Assembly: GCF_006345805.1 (NCBI RefSeq) | Contig: NW_021834831.1 | Coordinates: 1-45,531, forward strand | DNA from: Octopus sinensis | Lineage: Eukaryota | Direction of reading: 5' to 3' | Length of the DNA: 45,531 bases | Part shown: piece after piece, positions 1,099-35,509 of the stretch | How positions within the stretch are numbered: the first letter of the stretch is position 1 | Layout: each line of letters opens with the position of its first letter | Notes under the pieces: generated by a model | Databases searched by the model: none | What the model saw: only the letters and a program-made list of their open reading frames with translations | What the model was told of the DNA's origin: nothing | Program-made: the position numbers and the translations under genes

Positions 1099-1099
1099 G

Positions 1100-1555
1100 G
1101 CCTGGCCCTCTCAAGGTATGGACGACAATTCTTTTTGCTCCGCTCGTCGTTCATAAAAAAATCCACGTTCGCAATACTTTTTTTCGTTCGGCGTTAACAG
1201 CCCTCCTTATCTTGTTTTTCCTTGTCCTGTCTTTTACTGTTTATGATTTGTACTGTCGTTACTGTCCTGTTTTTGTTACCATCTTTTACCCCTCTGCGGA
1301 AAGATCTCAGAATTTTAATTGATTTGCTTTTCGCAGGAAGGAAAGTTTCTTGTCGAAGATACGTCTCGCTTTCACCTTCGAAACGTAGAGTAGATGAAAC
1401 CATAGCGACTGAAGAAGGGGTTTTTCTTTGTGTTAATTGTCCTGTACTCTATTTTTTTGTTGTTTAAAAAAATGTCCAGTTCCTTTGGTTTGTGTCTATG
1501 TTTTCGTTTCTCATTGTGTTCGACGTCTTTTTGGTGTCCTGTACTCATATATGCG
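1100..1555 (+). mobile_element. Non-coding dispersed repeat, possibly a PLE pseudo-LTR remnant
   Basis: 1376-1550 is homologous to the reverse complement of 5245-5430; 1185-1300 is homologous to the reverse complement of 1660-1740. Contains CGAAACG and CTGAAGA motifs and is bounded by TA-rich microsatellites. Confidence 0.5.
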
Positions 1556-1656
1556 TGTATATGTACATGTAGAGGTAGGTACGTACATATATGTTTATAT
1601 ATATGCATATGTTTTATTTTATTTATTAATATATTATATATATATATATATATATC

Positions 1657-4482: not shown

Positions 4483-5045
4483 ATATATATATATATATAT
4501 TCTCCATGGCGCAAGCCTGGGCGATAGAAACGAAGACACTGGGCTGCCCAGACACCAGAATCTTCCTCTCGCCCCCCCCCCCGACATAATCCAAAGGAAT
4601 GCAGTGCAGTACGTTTGGAGTCTGGTTGGCTGCAGGAGTTGCCGGAAAGGGGTCGAGATTCGACACCCTACCGCCTTCGGGGCTCCACTCCGGATTTTCT
4701 GTCTGGGTTTACTCCCATAGCCTTTCCCTCTCCCAAGAGCATCCGCAAGGCAGCGGAGCGAGGGTTTGGAGTCAGAGTTTTCCTTCTCCTAGACTGGCTG
4801 CCAACCAAGGCTAACGAGCCCAGTCTGCCCACCCGGTTATGCCGCCAAGCACCCGGTCGTTCCACACAGCAGGCTCAGTGAGAACAGGGGGTACCGCGTG
4901 AAGGTGCTGCTGTGGACACAGTAGTGCAGGAGAGGCCATAAGCAAGAACTTTCCGCAAGGCGCAGCCAGGTAGAAGTTCTGCAGCGATCATTACACCTGG
5001 AGAGGAGAGGCTATGAGTGGACGCAATCACTTTCCTTTGCCCCCC

Positions 5046-5048
<3 letters not shown>
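4190..5048 (-). mobile_element. GC-rich RTE-clade LINE 5' UTR-like fragment, interrupted by (TA)n at about 4425-4500
   Basis: Motifs CAGCCAGTCTAGGAGAAGGAAAACTCTG and GGGAGTAAACCC...AAATCCGGAGTGGAGCCCC resemble RTE 5' UTRs as recalled; no ORF. Assignment of 4190-4405 to the same element is weaker. Confidence 0.6.
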
Positions 5049-5099
<51 letters not shown>

Positions 5100-5244
5100 T
5101 ATATACATATATATTCAGATAAAACTTACTTGGAAAAGAATACGTGGTGTTCAATCATATAATAATATAAATAATATATAAATATATGCATATATACATA
5201 CATATCTGTACATACCTACATATATAAGCATATATACATGCATA

Positions 5245-5700
5245 TATGGGTACAGAACATTAAAAAACGTTAAACACAATGAGAAACGAAAACATAAACG
5301 CGAAAACATAGAAAACGAACTCTTTTTCGAACAACGAAAAATACAAATAGAGAAACGAGACATGCAACGTAAAGAATATTCCCCTTCATCAGTTGTCCCT
5401 GTTTCATCTACTCCGCTTTCCGAAGGTAAGAACATGTGTGTGCGGGGCGGGGAGCACATGGTCGTAATAATATGGTAGCATGAACCACGCCTTCATTAAA
5501 TGTTTTAGGCCACAGTCTATTTGCTATGAAAGAAAGACATCCGCACAGTCGTGCTACTCTTAATACCAAAGGTTTGACAGCGGAAAGGAAAGGGAAAAGG
5601 ACTGCTCTCACGTTCAAGTGAGCAGAGCAGAGGAACCCGAAATGAAAGCAACTCGCTCCCAACGATAAAACCCTCGTTGCTCGTTCCAGGACTCGGGCTC
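5245..5700 (-). mobile_element. Second copy of the 1100-1555 repeat family
   Basis: Reverse complement reads accttcggaaagcggagtagatgaaacagggacaactgatgaagggg versus accttcgaaacgtagagtagatgaaaccatagcgactgaagaagggg at 1375; the boundary near 5700 is uncertain. Confidence 0.55.
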
Positions 5701-8096: not shown

Positions 8097-8876
8097 TCCC
8101 GCCGTTCTTTTATTTAAATTTTTAAAAGGCTTAATAAAAAATAATAACTAATTAATCAATGATGTATTCACCCTTGTTGTTTGCAACTTCTTCCCAACGT
8201 TCAACACGATTTTCAATACCTTGTTGATAGAAATCAACCGATTTCAACTCGAAAAACTGATCCAACCAAGCTCTCAATTCTGCATCAGTACTGAACGAAA
8301 TTCCGCACATAGCATTTGAAAGAGATCGAAAGAGGCGGAGATCCGTTGGTGCCAAATCAGGAGAGTACGGCGGGTGTGGCAGCACTTCCCAGCCATGCGT
8401 TTGAATGGCTTCTTTGGTCATATTGGCGATATGAGGGCGGGCGTCGTCGTGCAGCAGAAGAACTCCATGCTGACGATTAGGTCTTCCTCTTGAATAGCCG
8501 GGTTGAGTCGTTCCATCTGTTGAACATAGAGTTCCGCGTTGACCGTTTGGTTCCGTTCAAGCAATTCGTAATGGATAATCCCTTCCCAGTCCCACCATAC
8601 GCACAACATCGTTTTATGCGGATGAAGATCTTGTTCCACGCGCGGTTTCGCTTGTTTACCGGGGCTAAGCCATTCCTTACGCTGCTTCATAATAATGTAC
8701 AGGCACCATTTTTCGTTGCCAGTAACAATTCGGTAAAGAAATCGTTGCTTGTATCCATGAGTTGAGCGGTGACGAGCAAGCAAACCAGCGGAGATTGTGG
8801 CTCGTTGATTTTTGTTTTTGTCACTTAAAGCATGCGGAACCCATGCTCCATATTTCTGAACCTTTCCCATCGAGTG
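8097..8876 (-). pseudogene. mariner (DD34D) transposase, 5'-truncated and frameshifted
   Basis: WVPHALS, RIVTGNEKW, KTMLCVWW, HDDARPH (shifted frame) and HPPYSPDLAPTD motifs; stop at 8152-8154. Confidence 0.92.
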
Positions 8877-9081
8877 AGAGTTAGAGCTTCCAACGAACAA
8901 ACAACGACAGAGTGGACGTACAGAGTGAACAATCGATGAAGACAAACATTAAGGACCGTTAGGCCAAACGAATTGTAATGAGTAACGCCTGGGAGAATAT
9001 TTTTCAAGGAAATAGAATAATTAGAAGATAAGAAAATAGTAGAAGAAAAAATTCTGGATCCGAGATAAATGACATCCAACC

Positions 9082-9648
9082 CTCAGTGGTTAGAGCAGAG
9101 GACTCGCAGTCGTAGGGTCGTGGCTTCGATTCCCAGACTGGGCGTTGTGAGTGGTTATTGAGCGAAAACACCTAAACATATATATTCTTGCTGTTCTTTC
9201 TCTGATGACGGTCTAAGGAAACTAGAAACCAATCCTCACACGTTTTCTGTCTACCGAAAAATATATATGGCTCAGTGGTTAGAGCAGAGGACTCGCAGTC
9301 GTAGGGTCGTGGCTTCGATTCCCAGACTGGGCGTTGTGAGTGGTTATTGAGTGAAAACACCTAAACATATATATTCTTGCTGTTCTTTCTCTGATGACGA
9401 TCTAAGGAAACTAGAAACCAATCCTCACTACACGTTTTCTGTCTACCGAAAAATATATATGGCTCAGTGGTTAGAGCAGAGGACTCGCAGTCGTAGGGTC
9501 GTGGCTTCGATTCCCAGGCTGGGCGTTGTGAGTGGTTATTGAGCGAAAACACCTAAATATATATATTCTTGCTGTTCTTTCTCTGATGACGGTCTAAGGA
9601 AACTAGAAACCAATCCTCACTACACGTTTTCTGTCTACAGAAAAATAT
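9082..9648 (+). repeat. Three-unit tandem array (189/192 bp): SINE-C tRNA-like head + about 95-bp spacer
   Basis: Units start at 9082, 9271 and 9463 and are nearly identical. Confidence 0.95.
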
Positions 9649-10442
9649 AACTTATGGTGTAAACACTTTATTTTTCACAGCGTGATTAGAATTGCAGGTT
9701 TATTGAGAAAAGTATATTCTTCATTTTAATATGTATGTGTGGGTGTGCGCACGCACGTCCGCATATGCATATATGCATATATGTACGTGTAGGTGTGCAT
9801 AAATACAAACACTTACATATATACATACACACACGCATACACACATTCGCATACACACACATACCTACATAGATACATACACAAACATTTTTACCTTTTC
9901 AAACGTTCTACTGGTGACAAACGACTTCCCCTTCCGGTGCCGAACTATACCTATCCCGGAACCTGAAAATAAAGCAATGACATTGATTCTTGTTTTATTT
10001 TTAGTTCTGATTTTCTTTGTGCTCTTCTCTTGGAGAAGGAATAAGATGTACTTCTTATTGAATACCTGGTCGCTTGAAATACTGTTAATGAAAATAAATG
10101 AAACTGAAGAGGTATGCAGCTACTGACACCTTAGAAATTATGTGGCTATTGATATAGAACAAAATACATATTAAATTAATCAGTCAAAATTTGCCTACGA
10201 CAAAGAAATCAACGTGATTGTTGATGCATTATGCTAACAGTAAAAAGAACATTTAGTGGAAAGTCTACACGAATTCTATCAGCATAGAAGAAAGAAAAGA
10301 AATGTTAAATATATTTCTTTCAATTCTTGATAATGAGACTGTGAAGTTCTAGAAATTTCGGATATGGATTTAGGATTTGCACTCTTGCAACCCAAGAGCA
10401 AAAACCTAATATGAAAATATGAAAAATACAAAGAAAAATGAA

Positions 10443-20212: not shown

Positions 20213-20700
20213 TAAGGTTTTCAAAAATATTTCATCGTTCTCGATACAATCAAGGAGATCTCGTGCAAATGAAACCCGAGTGTCTTTTTGGTCAGCTCAA
20301 AGCAATTTTGGCTCAAACTTAGCAGACACACGTCTCATCCCCATATCTTCAGTGATAATAGACTGAACTGAGCCGTAACTAATCAGCACGTCCTCTGATA
20401 TCTCACGGATGGTTATTCGATGATTTCTCCTCGCATCTGCACGCACATCTGCGATATTTTTCCCAGTCCTGCCGGTTCCGGGTCTCCCACAACGTTCGTC
20501 AATATCGACATTTTTTCGGCCATCTTGGAAACGTCTGAACCACTCGTACACTTGTGTGCGGCTCATACACTCCTCTCCATACACTTTCTGTAACTTTGCG
20601 TAGGCCTCTGAGCAAGTATCGCCATGAAAACTTTCTCTGTCATGGTCAATACGACGATCACACGCTACACACCTTCCTTCCAAACAGTGCTGTAAAAAGC
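20213..20700 (-). pseudogene. mariner transposase N-terminal HTH fragment
   Basis: MSRTQVYEWFRRFQDG, ERCGRP, RITIREISEDV.ISYGSVQSIITEDMGMRRVSAKFEPKLL; catalytic domain absent. Confidence 0.9.
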
Positions 20701-21354
20701 GGAAGTGAGCTACAACGCTAAAACTTAGTGCTCATGCACAAGGTGACAAATTACAAACACCATACCTTTGTAATTCTAACGTCTTTTTAGCTTTTTTTTT
20801 TCCTTTCCTTAATTTTTGCTACCGACGAAAAGTTTTTGACAACCCAGATTCTTAAAATGAATTTATTGTCTTCCTGTATGAAACGATCATATACCTACAT
20901 GGATAAAAATAATTTCAATCCATATTAACATCTAATCTCTTCCATTTACATAAAATATGATTGAATTTGTTGAATTTTGTTTCATAAGTTAAATCATATA
21001 CTTAATATACTTATATAACTTTTCATATCTATGCTAATTTACACCAGTAAATTAATGTAAAGTATGAAGAAACAACGTTAGAAATCTTTTGGAAACTACT
21101 CCAGTTAAAGGACGAATTCACATTCAACCCTTTTAAAAATATATATATCTACGGATATATATATATATATTGTCTTACGCCCAAAAAAGCCGACCCATGG
21201 AATAACAACGCACCACACACCTTGTGAATGTTCGATATACAGTATATACATGTATGTATGTATGTATGTATGTATGTATGTATGTATGCATGTATGTATG
21301 TATATATATAGAGAGAGAGAGAGGGGAGAAAGAGAGAGAGAAAGTGAGAGAGAG

Positions 21355-22277
21355 AGAGATACAATTGTATAGAATATAATTATACTTAAGGGGCACAGAA
21401 ATTACCATGCCTATATGCTGAAAATAGACGTCAAATACGTCCAAACACTAGATATTCACACAGATTGAAAGCGGGAAAGCCAACTGACTAAAAATCCATA
21501 AAATAATTCAGATAGTCTTGGATTGATCAATTTCTGGATTAGTTTGGTAACTTTTCTTTCATCAGGAAAACATTTTGAACGAATCCAGATATTGATCAAT
21601 CCAAGACTATCTGAATTATTTTATGGATTTTTAGACAGTCTGCCTTCCAGCTTTCAACATATGTATACCGTAAATCCTTAAGTATTGTCCGCCCTTGAGT
21701 ATAATACGCAGGGGATTTTTAGGGGGCTGTACCTCTGAAAAACCTTGTATAATACGCACTCCTTCTCTAACTTGAGTCGTGTGTAATTATGCCAGTAGCA
21801 CCTAGTCGAACAAACACTTCCGCGCATGCATAATACAATAATGGTGATGTTCTTAACTGTTATATGGGAATGTAAATATGTTTGCAAATTGTTTTTGTTA
21901 CATGTTATTCTGTGTTCTAAATACTTTTATTTGCTTATTGCAAGTTATGGATGATTCTTTTATGATTTCATTGATTTCAGGCTTAGTTTAAGGTATTTTC
22001 ACGCCCGACATCACAAAATGCGTCTGAATAAACATTGCCAACAGCAAATAGAGACTCGGACATTGCTTAGAAAATATTTTTCATCTTTAACCTCGTATAT
22101 AGTACATACTAGGGATTTTGACCTTTAAATTTTTGGGGGAAAAATGCGGATTATACTCGAGGATTTACGGTATGTGGAGTGAATATCTGCAGTGGTTGGA
22201 CGTCTATCTTCAGCATATATCTATGGTAGCTTCTGTGCTCCTAAGTATAATTGTATCCTATACAATTATGTATCTCT
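21355..22277. repeat. Long inverted repeat (about 185-bp arms) with the right arm split by a MITE
   Basis: 21488-21540 pairs with 21582-21634 (1 mismatch in 53); the outer left arm 21360-21460 pairs with 22173-22275. Confidence 0.85.
21668..22170. mobile_element. pogo/Tc2-type non-autonomous element
   Basis: TIRs CCGTAAATCCT.AGTAT..TCCGC / GCGGATTATACTCGAGGATTTACGG, flanked by TA on both sides. Confidence 0.88.
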
Positions 22278-22410
22278 ATTCTTTTGTTTCAGTCATTTGA
22301 CTATGGCCATGCTGGAGCACCGCCTTAATTGAAAGAAATCGAGCCCAGGACTTATACTTTGTAGCCTGGTGCTTATTCTATCGGTCTCTTTTGCCGAACC
22401 GCTAAGTTAT
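22278..22410 (-). mobile_element. SINE family B 3' fragment
   Basis: tgtttcagtcatttgact..ggccatgctggagcaccgcc...gccgaaccgctaagtta. Confidence 0.85.
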
Positions 22411-22504
22411 GTATGTATTCCACCTAAAAGGTTTTTTTTATATGCTGGCCACTGATAAAATTATTTAATTTTAATGATTTTATCTTTTATGTTTATTTAT
22501 ATAT

Positions 22505-22633
22505 GAGTGGCTGTGTGGTAAGAAGCTTGCTTCCCAACCATATGGTTCCGGGTTCAGTCCCACTTCTACTATAGCCTCGGGCCGACCAAAGTCTTGTGAG
22601 TCGATTTAGTAGACAGAAACTGAAAGAAGCCCG

Positions 22634-22666
<33 letters not shown>

Positions 22667-23300
22667 TTCAGTAAAGATTTAGATTCAGTTGAATATGGTA
22701 CTTAAGTTAAAGGCAGCAGAATTTGGCATGGTATTATCCATATAATTCAAAATGGGGTGATTACAATCAAAATAAGCAGCAAGGATATCCAGATGAATGT
22801 TGTTGATGAAACTTGTTCTTTGTCTACCTACTTGCCCTCTTTGTGATTTTGGTTAATAGAATAACTATACAAATGAATACTTTAAATTTAACTAAATTCT
22901 AAATGTTTATGCAGCTGAAGATTGCTCTACATTTTAAAACTGATGTAATATTTGCATTGTTCAATTAAATGGAGTCGCATGAAACGATAGTACTGCATTA
23001 CCTCTGGATATCCTTGTTGCTTATTTTGATAATATATATATATATATATTTATATATATGTATTTTTGTGTTTGTGTTTGCCCCCCCACCCCACACACAC
23101 GCACTTTCGCTTGACAACCGATATTGGTGTGTTTACATCACCGTAACTTAGCGGACAGAATAAGTACTTGGAGACCAATAGAATAAGTACTAGGCTTACA
23201 AAAAAAAAAAAAAAGAATCCTAGGGTCGATGTGTTCGATTAAAGATGGTACCCCAGCATGCCAGCAGTCAAGTAACTGAAACAAGTAAAAGAATAAAATA
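22505..23300 (+). mobile_element. SINE family B split by a about 365-bp insertion in its central (TA)n
   Basis: 5' half 22505-22636, 3' half 23060-23298, foreign DNA at 22664-23030. Confidence 0.8.
22909..22998 (+). ncRNA. Type I hammerhead ribozyme motif with long stem II
   Basis: AUGCAG CUGAAGA [U UGC...GCA U] GAAA C gaua GUA^ CUGCAT: perfect 6-bp stem I, intact core, 2-bp stem III; first pair of stem II is U.U. Confidence 0.78.
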
Positions 23301-23409
23301 TATATATATATATTTATATATTATCAGTAAATCATAAATCCGAAAAAAAAGCACACTCTAAGTTATAGAGTAGTAGAGCATATAGATAAAGATCTCTCAC
23401 TCTCTCTCA

Positions 23410-23449: not shown

Positions 23450-24510
23450 ACGCGAAGTGCATTCCAGAAGTTTTTAGAATATTTTTTCGGACAGGCATTA
23501 TAAATGTCATAGATTACTGTAATTTCAGTCTATCATTACTATGCATCTAAAGAGCTGACCTGCTAACTTTTGTTATCCCAGTTGTTAGGAGACGGCTGCA
23601 AACAACACTTTGAAGCCACTCTACAAAACATTACTTATCACAGCTGACTAGTTTTCAGAATGCAGTCGAGACTGGCAGCGAACTGGCAGAAACGTTAGCA
23701 CGCCGGGCGAAATGCGTAGCCGTATTTCGTCTGCCGTTACGTTCTGAGTTCAAATTCCGCCGAGGTCGACTTTGCCTTTCATCCTTTCGGGGTCGATAAA
23801 TTAAGTACCAGTTACGCACTGGGGTCGATGTAATCGACCTAATCCGTTTGTCTGTCCTTGTTTGTACCCTCTGTGTGTAGCCCCTTGTGGGTAGTAAAGA
23901 AATAGGTATTTCGTTTGCCACTACGTTCTGAGTTCAAATTCCGCCGAGGTCGACTTTGCCTTTCATCCTTTCGGGGTCGATAAATTAAGTACCAGTTACG
24001 CACTGGAGTCGATGTAATCGACCTAATCCGTTTGTCTATCCTCGTTTGTCCCCTCTGTGTGTAGCCCCTTGTGGGTAGTAAAGAAATAGGTATTTCGTTT
24101 GCCACTACGTTCTGAGTTCAAATTCCGCCGAGGTCGACTTTGCCTTTCATCCTTTCGGGGTCGATAAATTAAGTAACAGTTACGCACTGGGGTCGATGTA
24201 ATCGACTTAATCCGTTTGTCTGTCCTTGTTTGTCCGCTCTATGTGTAGCCCCTTGTGGGCAGTAAAGAAATAAGAATGCAGTCGAGACGTGAAATAATAT
24301 GGAAGCTCGCTATGCAATAAAATTTTCGTGTTACATTAGACAAAAACGCTACAGAAACTTAAAAAGTGCTCTGGTCTGTTTATGGATTAACTTGTATGAG
24401 CCGTACGTTTTTCGCAGGCACTTGAGGTGAGACAGAGATGGACATCAAAATTGTCTCTCACCCTCCCTACTGTCCAGACTTTTCTCCCTGTGACTTCTAG
24501 TTTTTCTCAA
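23450..24510 (+). mobile_element. Internally deleted mariner element hosting the SINE trimer
   Basis: After the SINE: MEARYAIKF, NATET and YGLTCMSR relics, then IKIVSHPPYCPDFSPCDF (YSPDLAPCDF relic). Confidence 0.7.
23673..24272 (+). mobile_element. SINE family A trimer inside one 16-bp TSD
   Basis: One full unit plus two 184-bp head-truncated units; AGAATGCAGTCGAGAC at 23657-23672 and 24273-24288. Confidence 0.95.
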
Positions 24511-31206: not shown

Positions 31207-31648
31207 TTTTATTCTTTTACTTGTATCACTCATTTGACTGCAGCCACGCAGGAAGTATTCTTTGTAAGCCTAGTACTTATTCTGTCGTTTTACTTTGCCG
31301 AACCGCTAATTTACGGGGACGTAAACACACTAGCATCGGTCGTCAAGCGATGGTGGGAGGACAAACACACACGTATACATGTACTTATATATATATATAT
31401 GTATGTATGTATATACATACATACATACATATATACATACATACATACATACATATATGTATATATATATATATAATACAAAATGGGACAAGAACGCAAA
31501 CGGCTTCTTTCAATTTCTGTCTACCAAATCCACTCACAAGGCTTTGGTCGGCCCGAGGCTATAACACTTGCCGAAGGTATCACGCAGTGGAACTGAACCC
31601 GGAACCATGTGGTTGGGACGTAACCTTTTTACCATACAGCCACTCCTC
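31207..31648 (-). mobile_element. SINE family B
   Basis: Tail, internal microsatellite and head all recognisable. Confidence 0.88.
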
Positions 31649-32470: not shown

Positions 32471-32690
32471 TGTGTGTATATGTTTGTGTGTTTGTGTTTG
32501 TCCCCCCAACATCGCTTGACAACCGATGCTGGTGTGTTTATGCCCCCGTAACTTCGCGGTTCGGCAAAACAGACCAATAGAATAAGTACTAGGCTGACAA
32601 AGAATAAGTCCTGGGGTCGTCGACTAAAGGCGGTGCTCCAGCATGGCCACAGTCAAATGACTGAAACAAGTAAAAGAGTAAAAGAGTAAA
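32237..32690 (+). mobile_element. SINE family B, full length, young
   Basis: GGCGTAGGAGTGG...CAAGTAAAAGAGTAAAAGAGTAAA. Confidence 0.93.
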
Positions 32691-35105
32691 CCAATTGATA
32701 TGCATGTTCAAAAGGACTATGGAAGAACAAACTGATATACCACATTGGCTTGCTACAGCAAGGACAAGTCTCGTTGCCAAAAATGAAATCATCGAGATGG
32801 CAGGAAGCTACAGGCCCGTTACTTGCCTAAGCATTATGTACAAGCCGTACACAAGTAGCCTCAACCAATTCCTTCACGAGGAATCGAACAACATTGTGAC
32901 TTATGAACAGGCTGGTGGAAAGAAGGGAGTGTGGGGATGTGCCGAACAACTTTTAATAAAAGAAAACTGTACTGTCTGAAGTTAGAAAACAACGCAGAAA
33001 CCTTGTGACAGTATGGCTTGTCTATATGAAGGCATTCGACTCTATTTGTCATTCATGGCTGTTGGAGTGCCAACATCTGGCAAAGGGACCTCCTTCTTTA
33101 ATTGCTGCAAAAGAGAGACTCACAAAGACATGGACAACTATTCTTACCCTTACTACTGAGAAAAGAATAATTGTTTCTGATAGTATAAGCATTACAAAGG
33201 GAATATTCCATTATCGTTCCTACTGCAGAAAACAAATGGTTACATGCTAGGATCTTCAACTGCCAGAAATATCAATGTAACTCATAATTTCTTTGTAGAC
33301 GACCTGAAGATTTATGCTAAAAGTGTTAAGAATGCCAAAAAAACAACTGGAATTATTAACATTTTCAACTAATATAGGCATGGAATTTGGCCAAAAGGAA
33401 TGTTCATATTTGGTTATAGAACGAGGAAAATTAGTCCCTCGAACTCAATACCTATGCATCAACGGTCTTTCTATCTCCCCCATTCCTCACAAAAAATGTT
33501 ACAAGTACCTAGGCATAGACGAAAATGTATCATATGAAGGCACTGTGAATAAAAATAGAATGACCCGATAATATTACACCAGACTCAGGAAAATATGGCA
33601 GTTGGAACTCTCCTCTTACAACAAAACAATATTCCACAATGCATTTACAGTACCAGGGCTCAAACCAACATTTGGGATACTTGATTGATCTGTAGAGGAA
33701 ATCCACTCGATAGATATAAAACCCCACAAAATCCTGACAATAACTGAGAACATCCACAGAAACAGTGATGTTGACAGGCTCTACCTAAGAAGAAATGAAG
33801 GTGGTAGAGGCCTGATAATCAGTGCAGACGGCATTCGAACGCCGTATGGTATCACTCAGGCAGCACCTGCTAAACAACAACAGCAAAAATAAATATTAAT
33901 GCAGTGCTGAAAAGCGAAGTGAGCAACATTGTACGCGTTGGCAGTGAACGCCTCAAGCAACATTCTCTTCCTAATGATCTCCTATACAGCCCCCAAACAG
34001 CTGGGCTCTCTTACCTCAGAGAAGACCTGGATGGAAAGCACTCAGCGTACAAAAAAAAAATGTTTATGCATGGTTATGCTGCCCGGAAGCTTGAAGGTGA
34101 CAGTAGAATTGACACGAAGCGCAGCCTCTCTTGGACACAAGACCACTACATCACATCACATTTTGAAGGCTATGCGTTTGCAATCCAAGAACAAGAGATT
34201 GCCACAAAGTACCTGGAGAGCAAGCGAGAAAGTGACGCTCTTGTAATCCCAAGTGGCAACCACATGTGTAGGCTATATCTTGTTTTCGTGGAAGACATTA
34301 CGCTTGTGATTAGCAGCTGTCCTAAAATGTCTTCACGGTACCATCTCTCAATGTGGTACGATGTAGTTGCTAAAACAATTTACAATGCCATCTGCAATAA
34401 AGACTGTCCTGAAATTAACTTAGAAAATCCCTCTGCTATGGAATACATTCATGACCAACCAACTCAAGGAATTCTGGTGGAATATTTGCGTCAAAACTTC
34501 TGTCAAATGTAAGCGTAACAAGCCGGATATTGTTGTTTGGGACTAGGGGCAATGGTATATACCACACATACATACATACATACATACATACATACATACA
34601 TACATACATACATACATACATACATACATACCGGATGTTAACATAAAGCTGAAGATCAGTGAAAAAGAGAATATTTACGCTGAACTATTGAAAAATATGC
34701 AGTTACTCTATCCAGATTACAAGTTCAGGTTCATACCTGTAATTATTGGGGTCCTGGGATACGTAACACACTGCTTAAATACCAATCTTGAGAAATTAAG
34801 TTTCTCAAAACCAGAAAGGAGAAAGCTAATTCGAAGACTACAGATCCAATCCATCACTAGAACTGTAAAAATTTGTAAAACTTCCCAGAAGTTTATCATT
34901 TAAATGTATATGAGCATGTCTTGATATGCAACTATATGCATGAGAATACATGCATAAGTAAAACATAGAAATTTGCAGATATACATACATACATACAAGT
35001 AATAATGCCCTGTTGTTGATGTTAAAATTCTAATGAAGGAGCCTTGGATCTAGGTTAGAAACTGGCTCTTTCTCTATTCGCAAGAAATCTTGAAATAAAA
35101 CTGGA
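32691..35105 (+). mobile_element. 5'-truncated non-LTR retrotransposon with RT and restriction-like endonuclease (R4/Dong-like), pseudogenised
   Basis: YRPVTCLSIMYK, EQAGGKKG..GC.EQLLI, KAFDSICHSWL, FVDDLKIY, YKYLGI, GGRGL, AIQEQEIATKY, CRL..EDI...ISSC, KPDIVVW and PVIIGVLG motifs in order; frameshifts; (TACA)n inserted at about 34565-34630; stop at 34901-34903, then 3' UTR. Confidence 0.9.
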
Positions 35106-35303
35106 CAATGACATACATGCATACATACATGTGTGTGTGTGTGCGCGTGTTTGTGTGTGAGCGCTCCCGCGCGCGTAACGCACTGTTCCGTGTTGGTAAG
35201 ATCAACAACAAAGTCCTCCATCTGGTGAGAGATAAATATGATTTAACAGACATGTTTTTATGCGCTACTATTCTCTCATTCTATTTTTTTTTAGTTCTTT
35301 TTG

Positions 35304-35380
35304 ATATGTCATTTGTGCCTGATGAATATGTTAAGCTATTTCTCAACATATGAAGCTATAAGTAGCACATAAAAACATAT
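35304..35380 (+). ncRNA. Extended type I hammerhead ribozyme motif (A15.1G variant)
   Basis: AUAUGU cauu UGUGC CUGAUGA AUAUGUU aagcuauuucuc AACAUAU GAAG CU aua AG UA^ GCACA uaaaa ACAUAU: 7-bp stem II and bipartite stem I with an internal loop; GAAG replaces GAAA. Confidence 0.8.
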
Positions 35381-35509
35381 ATAGTGTCTATCGTAAGTGT
35401 TTTAGTGTGTGTGTGTACGTGCGTGCGTGTGTGTGTACGTGCGTGTGTGCGTGCGTGTGTGTGTGTGCGTGCGTATGTGTGTGTGTGGCTGGGGTACCTT
35501 TGTATCAAT

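Follow-up and report, generated by a model that had tools for sequence, protein, structure and literature searches.

The closest described systems are the PLEs of the Hydra clade (PMC8557442, 2021), among them Hydra-1_Obim and Penelope-13_HM, which carry a type I hammerhead near the 3' end, terminate about 30-48 or 88-153 nt past the cut and insert into (TA)n targets. The same source lists 26 of 27 Hydra families as (TA)n inserters, one of them from Octopus bimaculoides. Targeting of (TA)n is common to Hydra, Naiad and Neptune (PMC8557442), and a (TA)n site is therefore not diagnostic of the Hydra clade. PLE insertions often show an inverted 5'-truncated copy at the 5' end together with a one-sided extension (PMC8557442, PMC3846280); Penelope-13_HM is itself listed with such an inverted copy (PMC8557442), the arrangement that we also infer for the locus described below. 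Near-palindromic, dimer-type stem III has been described for PLE hammerheads, single motifs of which did not cleave (PMC4209133). In octopus, PLEs account for 6.83% of the O. vulgaris genome and comprise 190 families (PMC13282606 supplement).

Two further groups share part of this anatomy. The Penelope/Poseidon elements of Adineta vaga and Anolis (PMC3846280, PMC11167929) display a head-to-head inverted pLTR, a one-sided tail, AT-rich targets and two internal reverse transcriptase (RT) starts; a purified PLE begins reverse transcription in vitro at two internal sites that bound the tail (PMC11167929). Metazoan non-LTR retrozymes, which have been argued to derive from PLE pLTRs, are non-coding, 150-450 bp long and equipped with a type I hammerhead (PMC7229834; bioRxiv 10.64898/2026.07.22.740005).

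Against this background, we analysed a window of 45,531 nt from Octopus sinensis (contig NW_021834831.1, positions 1 to 45,531), for which an earlier note had reported an insert of about 365 bp carrying a hammerhead at the TA tract of a SINE. The position given there is correct: a 366-bp insert (22665-23030) is set between two TA tracts, a site of the kind targeted by the Hydra clade (Table 1). We read it as a dead single-event PLE insertion in which an inverted stub lies head-to-head with a 5'-truncated direct copy, and assign this reading a probability of roughly two in three. Its main features are already in print for PLEs, down to octopus families.

Table 1. Coordinates of the features at the insert and at the second cassette, numbered from the first base of the window
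Feature	Position	Strand	Remarks
Candidate target-site duplication(s), 11-mer	22494-22504, 23047-23057, 23311-23321	+	one each ahead of the SINE 5' half, within the right TA tract and past the 3' tail
tRNA-like SINE, 5' half	22505-22635	+	lacks the first few nt and 24 nt internally; 3.8% from consensus
Left (TA)n tract	22636-22664	n/a	at the SINE internal microsatellite position
Putative inverted stub	22665-22793	-	+11 to +139/140 from predicted cut; copy status verifiable for 22766-22793 alone
Inverted repeat, 5' arm	22766-22793	-	27/28 complementary to 23003-23030
Putative direct 5'-truncated copy	22794-23030	+	115 nt AT-rich leader, hammerhead, 38 nt past cut
Type I hammerhead motif	22909-22998	+	descriptor scan, both strands
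Stem I, 6 bp	22909-22914 / 22993-22998	+	
Hammerhead core	22915-22921	+	
Stem II region, 59 nt	22922-22980	+	
GAAA of hammerhead	22981-22984	+	
Inverted repeat, 3' arm	23003-23030	+	ends one base short of right TA tract
Right (TA)n tract	23032-23059	n/a	one interruption
SINE 3' half, same family	23060-23297	+	13.6% from consensus; local duplication; poly-A expansion
Second, unrelated cassette	35171-35404	+	hammerhead and antisense arm; ends +40 at (GT)n tract
Antisense arm of second cassette	35250-35269 vs 35361-35380		18/20
Second hammerhead	35314-35369	+	GAAG for GAAA; clean 7-bp stem II; cut after 35364

The ribozyme motif has the complete type I core, with CUGANGA, GAAA, UH and helices I-III in type I order, and cleavage is predicted between 22992 and 22993. 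It is the only strict match on either strand of the window, and no match arose in 100 block-shuffled windows; a relaxed descriptor allowing one mismatch in GAAA gave two real matches against a shuffle mean of 0.05, both controls being somewhat generous because the descriptor limits were set after the motif had been seen. The core can thus be regarded as intact, as first described. The same cannot be said of the unusually long (59-nt) imperfect stem II reported alongside it: the region folds at -9.4 kcal/mol, a value reached by 124 of 1000 shuffles, and a long helix is accordingly unsupported. Stem II consists of a 3-bp base and a further stretch of about 51 nt whose folding is no better than that of shuffles, being either the remnant of a long hairpin that has decayed or sequence inserted into loop 2. 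Stem II is shorter in every Hydra entry of PMC8557442, where loop 2 does not exceed 10 nt; in a plant element flagged in that source the loop is about 35 nt. Stem III is minimal, comprising one further C-G pair with a 4-nt loop after GAAA, and its region is near-palindromic (6/8).

The core flanks are the same as in the Hydra clade (PMC8557442). By eye, 14 of the 25 Hydra-clade families in File S2 of that source share the T/T flank at the base of stem II, eight of these also sharing the first three stem II pairs, and the register that contains this flank and these pairs is iso-energetic with the minimum free energy fold (-9.4 kcal/mol); the ribozyme arms of Hydra-1_Obim differ from those of the insert. 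In a folding model that omits tertiary contacts, stem I is closed by pairing of bases +13 to +16, and the active fold occupies 0.04-0.05 of the ensemble for the isolated ribozyme, 0.0007 for the direct copy and 3e-5 for the entire insert. Little or no cleavage is predicted for this ribozyme, which stands alone and has a single pair in stem III. Rfam returned no match at the gathering threshold and no hammerhead family among 13, 13 and the best 150 of 169 weak matches, which were mostly microsatellites against miRNA models.

The second defining feature is the inverted repeat, whose arms are separated by 209 nt, the 3' arm beginning 10 nt past the predicted cut. Its score of 53, against a maximum of 30 among 300 shuffles, bears out the near-perfect reverse complement noticed earlier at this position. 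The homology is confined to the 28 nt, since 165 of 200 shuffles extend as well inward and 102 of 200 as well outward; an inward extension of the arm to the cut, plausible by eye, was dropped on the former count. Read on the minus strand from 22793 to 22665, the sequence starts at +11, matches the direct copy through its last base (+38) and then runs for about 100 nt that are absent from the direct copy. The inverted arm therefore ends at precisely the point at which the direct copy borders on the TA tract, whereas the inverted copy continues, a boundary that matches the published PLE anatomy of an inverted stub plus tail (PMC8557442, PMC3846280). Only 28 of the 129 nt of the stub are verifiable as a copy, and the other 101 nt (22665-22765) would be the tail. 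The junction within the insert has no clear palindrome.

The ends of the insert can be compared with those of described families. Distances from the cut to the consensus end were computed from Files S1 and S2 of PMC8557442 for 24 of 25 Hydra-clade families, leaving out Penelope-18, with its motif listed at the 5' end, and, for Penelope-13, the minus-strand row. They fall at 30-48 nt in 10 of the 24, at 88-153 nt in 11, at 63-70 nt in two and at 355 nt in one. The cut of the insert lies 38 nt from its end, near the 3' end as in EN+ PLEs and inside the shorter group; if the stub is one copy it extends from +11 to +140, the latter point falling in the longer group. The agreement lends support without being proof: where a consensus ends is decided by its curators, and more than half of the interval 0-155 nt falls within one range or the other. 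The overlap (28 bp) and the implied tail (102 nt) depart from the inverted pLTR of about 180-210 bp in the Adineta vaga and Anolis elements and from the published tail of 30-40 bp (PMC8557442, PMC11167929, PMC3846280).

These features would be accounted for by a single insertion event. Following published PLE biology, a GIY-YIG endonuclease would nick the (TA)n tract and the RT would copy the 3' end of the element twice, from two internal starts about 100 nt apart. One cDNA would start near +140 and stop at +11; the other would start at +38 and run 237 nt through the ribozyme into the 3' UTR, and the two would be joined in opposite orientation. The 28-bp repeat would then be the mere overlap of two cDNAs, not a device, and the role of the SINE would be limited to supplying TA repeats.

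The searches for relatives and for coding sequence tell against this picture. There is no second copy of the insert within the window, none in bacterial and archaeal genomes (GTDB), and no informative match for the cassette motifs in searches of the supplements of PMC8557442 and PMC13282606. Pfam was run on 246 segments, comprising 242 complexity-filtered stop-free stretches of at least 50 residues and four frames of the insert. Linkage to RT or GIY-YIG frames had been put forward as a check; this screen found no trace of either in or beside the insert, and recovered mariner transposase pieces and a weak RT match in a LINE 10 kb away, at 32674. The result is compatible with a PLE origin because a 237-nt 3' stub need not reach the ORF. 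No ORF remains in the insert, and with it has gone the coding sequence that would show the marks of the Hydra clade (RWK and DKT motifs, a CxCX5C linker and no CCHH); an origin from Neptune or Poseidon is conceivable too. A coding origin of the plus-strand frame at 22664-22846 was rejected after a word search and Pfam gave nothing; four phmmer matches (down to E 3e-13) were to unrelated Ig-like repeat proteins, with four to six stretches summed, and the best single stretch scored 35 bits, or about E 10 by our own scaling to the library. The inverted stub was likewise rejected as coding, with no Pfam family in three frames and no homologue. A tRNA scan of the sequence was empty, and a bacterial promoter scan, not relevant here, was below chance. 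The earlier proposal of inverted PLE pseudo-LTRs thus remains the best-fitting reading by virtue of the ribozyme build, the (TA)n site and the arm boundary, although a second copy and a coding link are both missing.

Other accounts of the insert have to be weighed against this. It could be a non-autonomous hammerhead element of about 366 nt, retrozyme-like or a mini-PLE, that is mobilised whole by a PLE and has the 28-bp stem built in to silence the ribozyme in the monomer or circle. The whole insert does fold well (z -3.6, equalled by 0 of 100 shuffles), the modelled active fold falls from the isolated ribozyme to the full insert as given above and drops to 1.5e-8 in the second cassette, where the arm covers the cut, and the single mismatch between the arms is a G-U pair on the plus strand. 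Its size is also within the retrozyme range, and retrozyme circles are highly self-paired (PMC7229834). Yet the folding signal stems from the repeat itself, the ribozyme region alone having a z of 0.53, and any transition yields a G-U pair on one strand. Retrozymes are moreover defined by tandem units (PMC7229834; bioRxiv 10.64898/2026.07.22.740005), whereas the insert is a single unit with an inverted arm, and an arm that ends at the insert boundary is directly explained by a one-off overlap; we consider a built-in stem unlikely. Still less probable is that the plus strand from 22665 to 23002 is one continuous element to which fold-back or repair synthesis, with 22766-22793 as template, added the final 28 nt of the insert, either at insertion or later. 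Such a short and nearly perfect inversion beside a junction is consistent with template switching, and a plus-strand frame of 60 codons with one stop runs across the supposed junction of stub and direct copy. That frame has no credible relatives, however, its only matches being the Ig-repeat artefacts; in the model, +13 to +16 already serve stem I, and the +38 end matches the published short-end group. Finally, the hammerhead could be a chance motif in unrelated AT-rich DNA with a small inversion, which we regard as very improbable: the empty Rfam result, the unremarkable folding of stem II and of the ribozyme region and the post hoc descriptor limits are offset by the absence of strict matches in shuffled windows and by the agreement of the T/T flank, stem II base and near-palindromic stem III, all outside the descriptor, with published PLE hammerheads.

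A separate question, which concerns the flanks only, is whether the insert split one SINE copy. The flanking element, which we take to be a tRNA-like SINE of 'family B', has its halves co-oriented, collinear with eight other copies and meeting at the insertion site, as a nested insertion would leave them, and to this extent the earlier description of a single split SINE stands. Of ten SINE 5' halves in the window, nine are paired with a 3' half in the same orientation, the spacer being a microsatellite of 40-130 nt in eight copies versus 473 nt here. The ages of the two halves do not fit the same description: they differ from the consensus of the other copies at 5/130 (3.8%) and 24/177 (13.6%) positions (Fisher p=0.005; about 12% and p=0.019 with the local duplication of the 3' half set aside), whereas the halves agree in all eight comparison pairs (p 0.42-1.0). 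The flanks may therefore be composite, deriving from two SINE copies of unequal age that became joined at TA tracts, whether by deletion or recombination, by a conversion that affected the 5' half, or by capture of a 5' half from a donor site with the inverted stub, flanking-DNA capture by PLEs being published (PMC3846280). SINE 3' halves lacking a 5' half are in addition common in the window (about seven loci among 17 3'-half matches). The 11-mer, of which three of the six copies in the window lie at this cassette, can be read both ways. The inner pair extends to 24 nt, so that an interrupted TA run is repeated on both sides of the 3' half, and would be the duplication of a separate 5'-truncated copy; the outer pair, directly before the 5' half and past the 3' tail, would be the target-site duplication of one SINE. 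Older-type bases also occur in both halves at the cleanest diagnostic columns (two of three on the left; two of five on the right, where the other three are weak). The earlier note would have given up the split if the halves were independent insertions; the divergence mismatch goes part of the way there, and the bracketing 11-bp repeat and the older-type bases speak against it. We regard one split SINE and a composite as about equally likely, placing the latter marginally below even. On either reading the insert is at SINE-internal TA on both sides. A minus-strand 3' fragment of the same SINE family (22284-22412) faces 23171-23295 of the 3' half, with which it encloses the entire cassette as an inverted pair (73%).

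The suggestion that SINE microsatellites act as landing pads adds nothing to the known (TA)n preference, which suffices; a large insert is present in one of nine paired copies. The 5' flanks of the SINEs are microsatellite or TA-rich in five of eight copies. One more SINE copy, on the minus strand, has about 27 foreign nt at its internal TA tract (31473-31502). This stretch shares 14 of 15 nt with 22742-22756 of the inverted stub, a match that 8 of 100 shuffles equal; if real, it could reflect a shared terminus and a shorter tail. Among the titles and abstract openings surveyed, none linked SINE-internal TA tracts to PLE insertion or inverted junctions to the hammerhead cut site.

A second, unrelated cassette had been likened to the first for its antisense arrangement at 35252. 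Its arm is real (score 31 against a shuffle maximum of 27) and lies near the cut, but the geometry differs: it reaches from -4 to +16, straddling the cut, with no extension toward the +40 end at (GT)n beyond what 135 of 200 shuffles show. The parallel thus goes no further than an antisense arm close to the cut. To yield an arm running over the cut the template must be uncleaved, which agrees with PMC11167929. The cassette precedes a SINE 3' half that lacks any 5' half. Just upstream lies a broken non-LTR retrotransposon (32674-35110; Pfam RVT_1 E 0.007; three homologues, 54-68%), which ends at (CATA)n and has a further (ACAT)n tract inside (34566-34631).

Several other elements of the window adjoin TA or other repeats. 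At 9082-9649, three 192-bp tandem units (97% alike) are each built of the head of a tRNA-like SINE and a partial hammerhead-like core, with a short TA run after each of the two; the core has CTGATGA and then GAAAC, with neither a valid stem III nor a cut, and the array may represent another family whose cassette, at a SINE TA run, has decayed. Related elements at 1099-1630 (plus strand) and about 5200-5500 (minus strand), 82% identical over 66 bp and adjoining (TA)n tracts, have GAAAC shortly upstream of a CTGANGA half-core. Three motifs from these elements were unmatched in the Craig 2021 supplement; the elements are possible PLE 3' ends. A GC-rich stretch of 549 bp (4500-5048) between two long (TA)n tracts has no other copy in the window and, on the minus strand, resembles an RTE-type element in its 5' region. 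Mariner transposase fragments occupy 8155-8948 and 20300-20731 on the minus strand (Pfam Transposase_1 E 8e-24; HTH_48 E 2e-9), a MITE-like, long near-perfect inverted repeat surrounds a short spacer at 21465-21657 (45 nt at 96%), and at 23722-24272 a second SINE-like family is represented by three copies of 184 bp in tandem (95%).

The insert as it stands adds another to the PLE-type hammerhead stubs known from TA repeats, and its value is that of a pointer. The age mismatch of the SINE halves implies that 'split SINEs' at TA tracts may be composites. The function of the hammerhead in EN+ PLEs is called unclear in PMC8557442, and its cleavage proved dispensable in vitro (PMC11167929). The antisense arms of the two unrelated cassettes both begin at the foot of stem I, no more than 11 nt from the cut (+11 and -4). 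One explanation, which we advance as a distinctly unlikely one, is that the ribozyme itself sets the stop of the inverted cDNA, the folded or cleaved hammerhead acting as an RT stop and as the template-switch point that creates the inverted ends of PLEs; it is proposed for families whose start sites lie about 100 nt apart and, here, for a 59-nt stem II. Should inverted junctions cluster at the ribozyme genome-wide, across about 190 PLE families, the role of the hammerhead would be testable by junction counts, and, if the idea is true, PLE hammerheads would acquire a role readable from genomic junctions alone.
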